A DNA stretch of 64,000 nucleotides from Giardia intestinalis (taxonomy: Eukaryota), in assembly GCA_000002435.2 (NCBI GenBank), contig CM018793.1; one strand, 5' to 3'. This document shows, piece after piece, positions 60,040 through 62,227 of this stretch. A program made the position numbers and the translations under genes. Under the pieces are notes generated by a model. It saw nothing but the letters and a program-made list of their open reading frames with translations, was not told where the DNA came from and made no database searches. Every line of letters begins with the position of its first letter. The first letter of the stretch is position 1.

Positions 60040-60237
60040 AGCCATTACTCTGTCCCGACGAGCCGATCCCGCCTGCCACTCGTCGCCCGTGCAGCACTGT
60101 CCCTCCGGGCACACGACAAGGCGCCTCGTGTGCGACCAGGCCAGCGGGCTCCCCCCTGGGGCAGCCCTCGGAGTGGGAGTCTCAGAGAGGAGGCCGCCGG
60201 GGCACCCCCACCCGCTGCGCGCAATCCGGTCCACACC

Positions 60238-62227
60238 ACAGCCTCTCTACTGATACCCCTGTTCGTGGTGAGCGCGCTTGCAGTAACCTGCCAGGCCGAT
60301 AAGTGCGAGACGGTCGGTAACACAGAGATCTGCACCCAGTGCAGGGCCGGGGCGTCCCGGTCGACGGCTTCTGCTGGCCCCCCGGCTTCCCCCAGGCCGC
60401 GGCAGCCGGGTGCACCGAGGAAGACGGGGTACCCTCGACAAGACGGCAGCCACCTGCGGGAAGTGCGGCGACGGGTACCTCCTCTTCATGGGCGGATGCT
60501 ACAAGACAGAGAGTCAGCCCGGCAGTGACATATGCACAGCAGCCAGTAACGGAGTATGCACTGAGTGTAATACAAAGAACGGCCTGTTCAAGAACCCTGC
60601 TACAGCACCAGAGAAAGGAAGGGAGTGCATACTCTGTCATGATGCCACGGGAGCAGATGGATATATGGGAGTCGAGGGCTGCGCTACATGTACAGCACCA
60701 ACTAATAATAAGGGGGCAGCCACGTGCACAGAGTGTCAAGATGGGTACTACAACGATGGTGGCGCATGTAAGAAGTGCGTTGATGGATGCATAGACTGCA
60801 CCGGTGCAAATCAATGCACAACATGTGAGGACGGGAAATACCTGAAGAATAATCAATGTGTAGATGCTGGTCAATGTGATCAAGGCACCTATGCAGACCC
60901 GACAACAGGCCAATGCAAGCCATGTGGAATAACTGACTGTGCCACCTGTGAGTACAATGCAACTATTAGTCAACCACAGTGTAAGACCTGCAGTACTAGT
61001 AGTAACAAGATGGTGAAGACAGCGGCAGACGGGACGACCACTTGTGTCGATGATGGTGGATGTACAAATGGCAATACGCACTTTGTTGAAGGTACTAACC
61101 AAAAGCTTTGTGTCCCATGTGGTGATACTACAAATGGTGGGGTTCTAGGTTGTAGTACTTGCTCCTCTAAAACTACATGTACAAAGTGCCTCGACGGATA
61201 CTACGATAGTGGTAGTGGTACGGTTACATGCACCGCTTGTCCAGGTGCTAACTGTGCCACCTGTGTTAAAGATACAAAAGACCAATGCACGACCTGTAAG
61301 CCTGGGTTCTTCTTGAAGGATAGCTCCTCTGGTGAGTGCATCTCATGTAGTGACAAAAACAATGGGGGCCACGAAGGGTGCAGTGCATGCTCTAGCAACG
61401 GTGCTTTCAAGTGCACTGACTGTAAGCCTAACTACAAAAAAGAGGGAACTTCAGACAACTATACATGTGTGAAGACTTGTGAGGACGAGACGGCTTGTGG
61501 TGGTACTTCTGGGGCCTGTGATGCAATAGTAATTGACGAGAATGGCAACACAAAGCATTATTGTTCATTCTGTGGGGAGAGTGGTAAGTTCCCTATAGAT
61601 GGTCTCTGTGCTAGTGACAAGGCTAATAATAATGGATGTGCCAATGGTGTCTGTACATCATGTACTGCTGCTAACTACTTCCTCTATATGGGTGGTTGTT
61701 ATAAGGTTAATACAGTACCAGGTAGTCATATGTGCAAGACAGCTAACAACGGTGTCTGTACAGCTGTTAGTGAGAACAATAAGTACTTCATAGTCCCAGG
61801 GGCATCCAATCAGAATCAGTCTGTACTAGCATGTGGTAACCCCCTAGGCACACTAGTAGATACTAAGGCATACGTGGGGGTCGAGGGCTGCTCTCAGTGT
61901 ACAGCCCCGACAGCTCTAACAACAGCTGGCATGACCGCTGCTGTGTGTACCTCCTGTGACAGTGATAGGAAGCCCAACAAGGATGGTACTGGGTGTGTGC
62001 TGTGCTCTGACACCAACTGCAAGAGCTGTGTGATGGACGGTGTGTGTGAGGAGTGCAACAGTGGCTTCAGCCTAGACAGCAGTGGGGCCTCCTGTGTGTC
62101 CTCTGGCGCCAACAGGAGCGGGCTCTCCACGGGGGCCATCGCGGGGATCTCCGTCGCCGTGGTCGTCGTCGTGGGGGGCCTCGTGGGCTTCTTGTGTTGG
62201 TGGTTTGTGTGTAGAGGGAAGGCGTAG
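60238..62227 (+). pseudogene. VSP with signal-peptide-like N-terminus but no ATG, and two apparent frameshifts in the first ~200 nt
   Basis: Frame A (within ORF 60130..60528): SLLIPLFVVSALAVTCQADKCETVGNTEICTQCRAG. Frame B (60339..): VPVDGFCWPPGFPQAAAAGCTEEDGVPS. Frame C (60410..62227, 605 aa): TLDKTAATCGKCGDGYLLFMGGCYKT...GLVGFLCWWFVCRGKA*. Together these rebuild a canonical VSP N-terminus. Both shifts fall in homopolymer runs (ggcccccc..cccc and gacgggg|tac). No ATG or AT-rich initiator lies upstream of the hydrophobic core. Confidence 0.55.

Follow-up and report, generated by a model that had tools for sequence, protein, structure and literature searches.

Near the end of a 64,000-nt stretch of chromosome 5 from the reference assembly of Giardia intestinalis WB-C6 (GCA_000002435.2, contig CM018793.1; hereafter the window) is a remnant of a gene for a variant-specific surface protein (VSP), at 60244-62227 on the plus strand. 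We interpret this locus, with a probability of about 85%, as a non-functional VSP pseudogene (pVSP) at the head of an array of 5'-truncated pVSPs, one that is already catalogued as GL50803_0050049. With no start codon and with two single-base deletions in its N-terminal coding region, this copy could not make a VSP. The existing annotation spans 60287-62227 (+; 1941 nt) and agrees in sequence and length with Table S7 of a 2022 preprint (bioRxiv 10.1101/2022.03.07.483299), in which the identical sequence, both deletions included, is listed as pVSP GL50803_0050049 on NC_051860.1 and is followed by pVSPs 50050 to 50054.

Three-frame translation resolves a full-length VSP broken across three frames by two 1-nt deletions, each a shift of -1, so that the division of the N-terminus among three frames described in the first-pass annotation is confirmed. 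The first segment (frame A, 60244-60351, +) reads SLLIPLFVVSALAVTCQADKCETVGNTEICTQCRAG, within a longer frame-A stretch that includes ...TASLLIPLFVVSALAVTCQADKCETVGNTEICTQCRAG, and opens with a hydrophobic core resembling a signal peptide, SLLIPLFVVSALA (60244-60282, +), after which comes VTCQADKCETVGNTEICTQCRAG; the core was assessed by homology to MFQLIPLFVASALMA N-termini. The second segment (frame C, 60354-60428, +) reads VPVDGFCWPPGFPQAAAAGCTEEDG. The third (frame B, 60431-62227, +) starts TLDKTAATCGKCGDGYLLFMGGCY and continues for 598 codons to a TAG stop (62225-62227), with 27 CXXC motifs and 12.2% cysteine over these codons; it finishes with a transmembrane helix, the CRGKA tail and the stop (...GLVGFLCWWFVCRGKA, end at 62227). 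A VSP-type extended polyadenylation signal, TACTTAGGTAGTGAATGCTA (62229-62248, +), follows, a sequence found in Table S6 of the preprint (bioRxiv 10.1101/2022.03.07.483299) for GL50803_0050049 through 50054.

The Pfam VSP model (PF03302) matches 60410-62224 with 154.6 bits against a cut-off of 31.4. When the two missing bases are restored, the N-terminus aligns unbroken over both sites to the functional WB VSP GL50803_00116477 (P0014; 76% identity, E = 2e-78), and the 76% protein identity, over the first 155 residues, is accompanied by a DNA identity of ~92% over 60250-60500. Judged by these scores, the VSP match is far above chance level, and the Pfam score, the transmembrane helix with CRGKA, the CXXC-rich body and the polyadenylation signal together place the locus in the VSP sequence family (PF03302). 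As an expressible VSP it fails, with the signal-peptide core in frame A, the body in frame B and two -1 shifts between them. Being VSP-like, situated in an array and without a proper signal peptide or start codon, it falls within the pVSP or psiVSP class of Xu et al. 2020 (PMC7000408), who defined 208 psiVSPs without a proper signal peptide or start. Both pVSPs split over all three frames and pVSPs with the signal peptide in a frame other than that of the open reading frame (ORF) are known from the preprint (bioRxiv 10.1101/2022.03.07.483299). A collection of 15 billion proteins contained none from this locus, the best VSP match there being only 65-66% identical. Among the entries covered from the preprint's expression tables, this gene ID did not occur.

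No ATG occurs in any frame from 60000 to 60487, as had been claimed for the sequence upstream of the hydrophobic core, and the VSP initiator PyAatgTT (YAATGTT) was not found in or near the locus, which therefore falls short of an expressible VSP in this respect also. Aligned to ATGTTCCAACTGATACC starts, the locus has GCC (60241-60243) as the codon homologous to ATG, and the homologous position reads GCCTCTCTA. The functional relatives, WB VSP 116477 and a VSP on contig 28 of isolate DH, begin with ATGTTCCAACTGATACC, that is, with the PyAatgTT initiator, and the intact array-head VSP elsewhere in the window has TAATGTT at 22740-22746. The initiator is present in 135 of 136 complete WB VSPs (bioRxiv 10.1101/2022.03.07.483299), and efficient expression from the VSP promoter requires it (PMC2996952). 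The first-pass annotation had described the upstream sequence as GC-rich and devoid of an AT-rich initiator. The GC-richness is real, but in this VSP subfamily it is no abnormality: the intact relative on DH contig 28 also has 65-70% GC upstream, so that a missing 'AT-rich initiator' is not diagnostic on its own, and the relevant absent element is the PyAatgTT initiator.

In place of a VSP promoter and initiator, the locus has a GC-rich spacer (the 'leader', 60040-60243, +) that separates the remnant from an upstream gene encoding 442 aa, GL50803_00114445. Loci of relatives were fetched after a homolog search had returned DH proteins (P0005, P0012 and P0121) whose N-termini extend across this GC-rich upstream region; a further homology search, for which the frame-A ORF was the query, gave only P0121 and missed P0005, and is thus unusable for copy counts. 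The syntenic ortholog is on DH contig 95 (L006), colinear with window 52189-60580 over 8.4 kb and with the same five flanking genes. A copy on DH contig 1 (L003) was considered as the ortholog and rejected, as synteny assigns that place to L006; L003 is a paralog. Of the copy in an assembly from the European Nucleotide Archive (ENA; L004), only the VSP and ~180 nt of the leader are in common with the window.

Every relative with the same GC-rich spacer has the ATG-less junction CACAGCC[T/A][C/T]TCTACTGATACC directly before the signal-peptide core. The carriers are the syntenic ortholog and two paralogs in DH (L006, L003 and L002), the ENA isolate (L004) and, in WB besides the window, pVSP 50032, intergenic3038/pVSP 50218 and intergenic3063 (from the tables of the preprint). 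Because it is common to several loci and isolates, the junction cannot be an error of the WB assembly, and from its distribution it is ancestral to a small multi-locus family. The recurrence of the junction supports the earlier preference for a decaying pseudogene over sequencing errors, which had been argued from the missing start. When initiator-type and ATG-less 5' ends are compared, homology fades within ~9 nt upstream of CTGATACC, which indicates that the start and the initiator were lost at a junction with foreign sequence. The only ATG in a leader, the annotated start of P0005 on DH contig 182, was created by a C-to-T change found in that copy alone, and P0012 (DH) is annotated as 'partial' with a GTG start.

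Annotation of these loci in DH is inconsistent. The frameshifted ortholog (L006 8001-8486) is a 'DnaJ-type Zn finger domain protein, partial', one paralog (L002 745-2994) is given an 80-aa N-terminal extension from a fortuitous ATG, and another (L003 10001-12112) is 'partial' with a GTG start. A segment of 30 nt (PDGNHTATCQ-type) is absent from the whole ATG-less family and present in the initiator-bearing relatives (window 60292-60300 compared with L005 6420-6460); copies of a short direct repeat, ACCTGCC, lie on either side of it, suggesting a deletion through slippage or recombination.

The first frameshift lies at 60349-60352, where the window has GGGG and relatives have GGGGG or GGAGG, one base having been deleted. 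It had been ascribed to runs of the type ggcccccc/cccc, which proved to be incorrect: the window has lost nothing from its C runs at 60376-60393, and the shift is in the GGGG run. Six of seven aligned relatives have the extra base (GGGGGC, or GGAGGC in L003) compared with GGGGC in the window, and the G4 state is otherwise present only in WB pVSP 50218/intergenic3038, which is on another chromosome (NC_051859.1) and shares with the window the local haplotype GGTARCACAGAGATC...GGGCC-GGGGCG around the deletion. In WB pVSP 50032 and VSP 116477 the same context of plus or minus 20 nt was called G5 in the same assembly. Given its occurrence at two loci on one haplotype, and given the G5 calls in identical context, the first deletion is very likely a real mutation, one spread by duplication or gene conversion.

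At the second site a C has been lost between 60429 and 60430, GGGGCTACC having become GGGGTACC. All six aligned relatives read GGG[G/A]CT[G/A]C, compared with GGGGTAC in the window. The shift had been placed in a gacgggg run, and it does adjoin the GGGG run at 60426-60429; no homopolymer has contracted, however, for the base removed is a lone C rather than one of the G residues. This deletion is unique to the locus: the string gaagacggggtaccctcgacaag in Table S7 of the preprint occurs here alone, and further variants specific to 50049 are TTC at 60387-60389, CTC at 60469-60471 and the GGTAACACAGAGATC haplotype. Since the missing bases are present in the aligned relatives, apart from pVSP 50218 at the first site, both deletions are derived on the lineage of the window. 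Comparison with the orthologous locus of another isolate, which the first-pass annotation had proposed, revealed that the DH ortholog is ATG-less as well and has a different frameshift, a separate 1-nt deletion of its own in the C run (window 60378) that leaves an annotated product of only 161 aa.

It may be that the second frameshift, and perhaps the first as well, is a consensus error left over from PacBio sequencing and that the real frame is uninterrupted, like that of pVSP 50032, and still ATG-less. Several observations weigh against true decay at these sites. The second deletion rests on one PacBio-based assembly, whose authors report homopolymer frameshifts from PacBio that were mended by Illumina reads (PMC7000408); correction was confined to frameshifts for which 10 or more mapped Illumina reads gave support of at least 50% (PMC7000408), and a multi-copy region of 68-70% GC is a weak spot for short-read correction. 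In addition, the 1-nt indels specific to the window, relative to two DH copies, all (4/4) fall in the 2.0 kb of non-coding and pseudogene sequence of the GC-rich block that holds the VSP 5' end, and all are deletions in a G/C context, which is also a signature of long-read consensus error. Relative to the DH copies, however, the 442-aa ORF and 4.8 kb of flanking genes are free of such indels, although together they contain 39 of the 59 G/C runs with a length of at least 4 and the 442-aa ORF is equally GC-rich. The first deletion, as described, is found at two loci on different chromosomes in one haplotype, with identical contexts called G5 at two others, and the C removed by the second lies outside any homopolymer. 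We put the chance that the second deletion is an assembly error at roughly one in three, and regard the broader explanation by sequencing error as unlikely; even with both bases corrected there would be no ATG or initiator, and the locus would still be a pVSP.

The 5' end of the remnant lies inside a 3.3-kb GC-rich block (~57250-60580) of 60-70% GC, compared with 45-50% in the VSP body. The core of this duplicated block is GL50803_00114445 (58711-60039, +; 65% GC), a hypothetical protein of 442 aa that matches KAE8304796.1/XP_037902163.1 exactly. Its family contains four WB paralogs (114445, d114445, 113952 and 111911) and the DH ortholog, and is represented by one 90% cluster of 37 sequences; in every fetched locus the 442-aa gene sits directly upstream of the ATG-less VSP. 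Its ORF has zero indels in four copies (the window and three DH copies), and there are 12 synonymous and 16 non-synonymous codon differences from the ortholog, for a rough ratio of non-synonymous to synonymous rates (dN/dS) of ~0.4. No Pfam or Rfam match and no convincing PDB match was found for the gene. Ribosomal DNA or a structured RNA was rejected as the identity of the block, as nothing in Rfam matches it at E ≤ 0.1, and so was a retrotransposon or known domain: seven ORFs are without a Pfam match, and the sole PDB match, PNO1 (E = 0.008), is weak and probably spurious.

Divergence across this region is uneven. Between WB (A1) and DH (A2), the 4.8 kb of flanking genes differ by ~0.3% and have no indels, whereas the GC-rich block (57250-60580, compared with L006 5060-8452) differs by ~4% and contains all nine indels. 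The leader is 100% identical to that of WB pVSP 50032 (210/210, over 60040-60249), and is 91-94% identical to other copies and 91% to the syntenic DH ortholog; the window, the DH ortholog and the DH paralog are about equidistant, with 70, 75 and 90 private differences. A leader that is identical to a paralog within WB yet only 91% identical to its ortholog, together with these nearly equal distances, is as expected under concerted evolution through ectopic recombination, and suggests ectopic gene conversion among copies of the block. Toward the upstream end of the block (window 57433 and 57876), a deletion in the window has removed 16 nt that both DH copies have, and an insertion of 41 nt sets the DH ortholog apart from the window and the DH paralog alike. 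A short-read contig from Logan (L001, SRR24058257; 3754 bp, 99.87% identical) stops at the AT-to-GC boundary, 57242/57243, at the start of the repeated block, as would be expected if assembly broke at a multi-copy element.

A second alternative is that the ATG-less VSP is expressed in an unconventional way: by cis- or trans-splicing at CACAG (60237-60241), by read-through of the TAG at 60037 or by non-AUG initiation, with programmed frameshifting in addition at this locus. The sequence just upstream of the signal-peptide core, CCACACCACAG, loosely resembles the CACAG at the end of Giardia introns and does not vary among the copies. The signal-peptide segment is in the same frame as the 442-aa ORF, with a single TAG, the stop of GL50803_00114445 (60037-60039), between them, and long open frames are kept in some paralogs. 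None of the proposed routes holds up well. An intron acceptor at CCACACCACAG was rejected, as the 3' motif of Giardia introns, CTRACNCACAG (CTRAC[AC]CACAG), is unmatched at 60231-60241 even with one mismatch and there is no CTRAC branch point; the 5' splice motif GTATGT does not occur on the plus strand from 56142 to 60240. Read-through from the 442-aa gene was rejected likewise, since the leader substitutions between the window and P0005 are non-synonymous in frame A. The leader has no ATG and is open in all three frames, as expected at 70% GC, and the openness of frame A is thus uninformative. Use of a start within the leader is disfavored by the fact that the single leader ATG, on DH contig 182, is private to that copy, and the copy in the window would also need two -1 corrections. 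Unconventional expression seems to us barely credible.

Homology of the VSP body to the DH ortholog ends at 60580. The tract 60623-60770 is identical to 21081-21228 on the minus strand (148 nt), part of a locus-1 pVSP 40 kb away, and 61775-62165 is identical to 63610-64000 (391 nt), the last part in the window of the next array member. The pVSPs that share these tracts are otherwise 70-78% similar, and the identical tracts look like recent conversion tracts; the body as a whole reads as a mosaic of tracts identical to other pVSPs. The next head-to-tail member is a 5'-truncated pVSP (62300-64000, +; PF03302, 62.9 bits) starting at the DICTAASNGVCT point and cut off by the end of the window. Altogether, five reading frames in the window terminate in the VSP signature ...CWWF(V/I)CRGKA and a stop. 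The ORFs that flank the locus are exact matches to the WB-C6 proteins KAE8304790-96; peroxiredoxin 1, GL50803_0016077 and GL50803_0016078 likewise match exactly. Locus 1 (15983-22765, -) is also a head-to-tail array, consisting of an intact 'VSP with INR' (KAE8304771, 21407-22744) and then three 5'-truncated pVSPs, one of which (19597-21186) appears as VSP XP_001704185.1 in the annotation of the old WB genome.

The preferred reading, that of a decayed pseudogene, may be put as a series of events, the order of which we infer. Coding sequence of a VSP, starting at around codon 3, would have been fused by an ancestral rearrangement to the 3' flank of a GC-rich GL50803_00114445-family gene, and this fusion would have stripped off the ATG together with the PyAatgTT initiator that VSP expression requires. 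The resulting module, composed of the 442-aa gene, a spacer of ~210 nt and the ATG-less VSP, would subsequently have been copied to several loci, with ectopic recombination keeping its copies alike within a genome. In the WB lineage, the copy described here would have additionally lost two single bases, dividing its N-terminus among three frames. Its persistence may reflect a use as donor sequence for gene conversion into VSPs that can be expressed, or it may simply be what such exchanges leave behind.

Several ATG-less paralogs retain complete ORFs of at least 2 kb that continue through CRGKA (703 aa in P0012, 749 aa in P0005 and 657 aa in P0001), which simple neutral decay would not predict unless gene conversion refreshes the copies. 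It is conceivable in this light that the ATG-less module, found at no fewer than four WB loci and at least three DH loci, with several intact 2-kb frames, constitutes a selected class of start-less donor cassettes that carry a signal peptide, rather than debris. We consider this improbable. Were it so, these would be the only silent copies able to give N-terminal VSP sequence, through gene conversion, to initiator-bearing VSPs such as 116477, or, alternatively, they would be cassettes activated on acquiring an initiator through such an exchange, and the copy in the window would be a recently inactivated member of the class.

As a pseudogene, the locus is in most respects an ordinary, already known member of the large Giardia reservoir. 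Like the WB pVSPs it has a VSP body, a transmembrane helix, CRGKA and the extended polyadenylation signal, has no proper start or in-frame signal peptide, and stands in a head-to-tail array. Most array pVSPs are 5'-truncated in the DICTAAS/MGGCY region, as at 62300; this locus, unlike them, keeps its N-terminal coding region to about codon 3 and is fused to a conserved GC-rich spacer behind the 442-aa gene. The locus is a little out of the ordinary in retaining its entire N-terminal coding region and in belonging to a small multi-locus family on the same spacer, some members of which have complete frames. With functional VSPs such as GL50803_00116477 and others of the 'MFQLIPLF...' type, the locus shares the cysteine framework and the C-terminus; those VSPs differ from it in having a PyAatgTT start (ATGTTCCAACTGATACC), 30 extra nt, and both G5 and GGGGCTACC intact. 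Linear arrays of vsp genes in head-to-tail order, with downstream members that lack an initiator, were described by Adam et al. 2010 (PMC2996952), who proposed that such members are recombination cassettes or discarded remains. The array at the present locus resembles them in its order, in its spacers of ~70 nt and in the lack of initiators downstream. An initiator was present in 12 of 25 first array members in that survey (PMC2996952); here the first member is also without one, which leaves the whole array without an expressible head.

African trypanosomes have a large silent reservoir of variant surface glycoprotein (VSG) genes, with start-less or frameshifted copies, patchwork identity and mosaic donors. 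By analogy, the Giardia locus may be likened to the VSG repertoire, as part of a reservoir of defective surface-antigen copies with patchwork identity. The switching of VSPs in Giardia is regarded as epigenetic or post-transcriptional, unlike that of VSG.

For the reference genome, the analysis confirms the pVSP annotation GL50803_0050049 as sound, which is of little importance beyond bookkeeping. The surrounding GC-rich block, which diverges ~10x faster between A1 and A2 isolates than the adjacent housekeeping genes and is homogenized within WB, offers a clear local illustration of the ectopic recombination that takes place around VSP loci, and as such bears on how the VSP repertoire diversifies.

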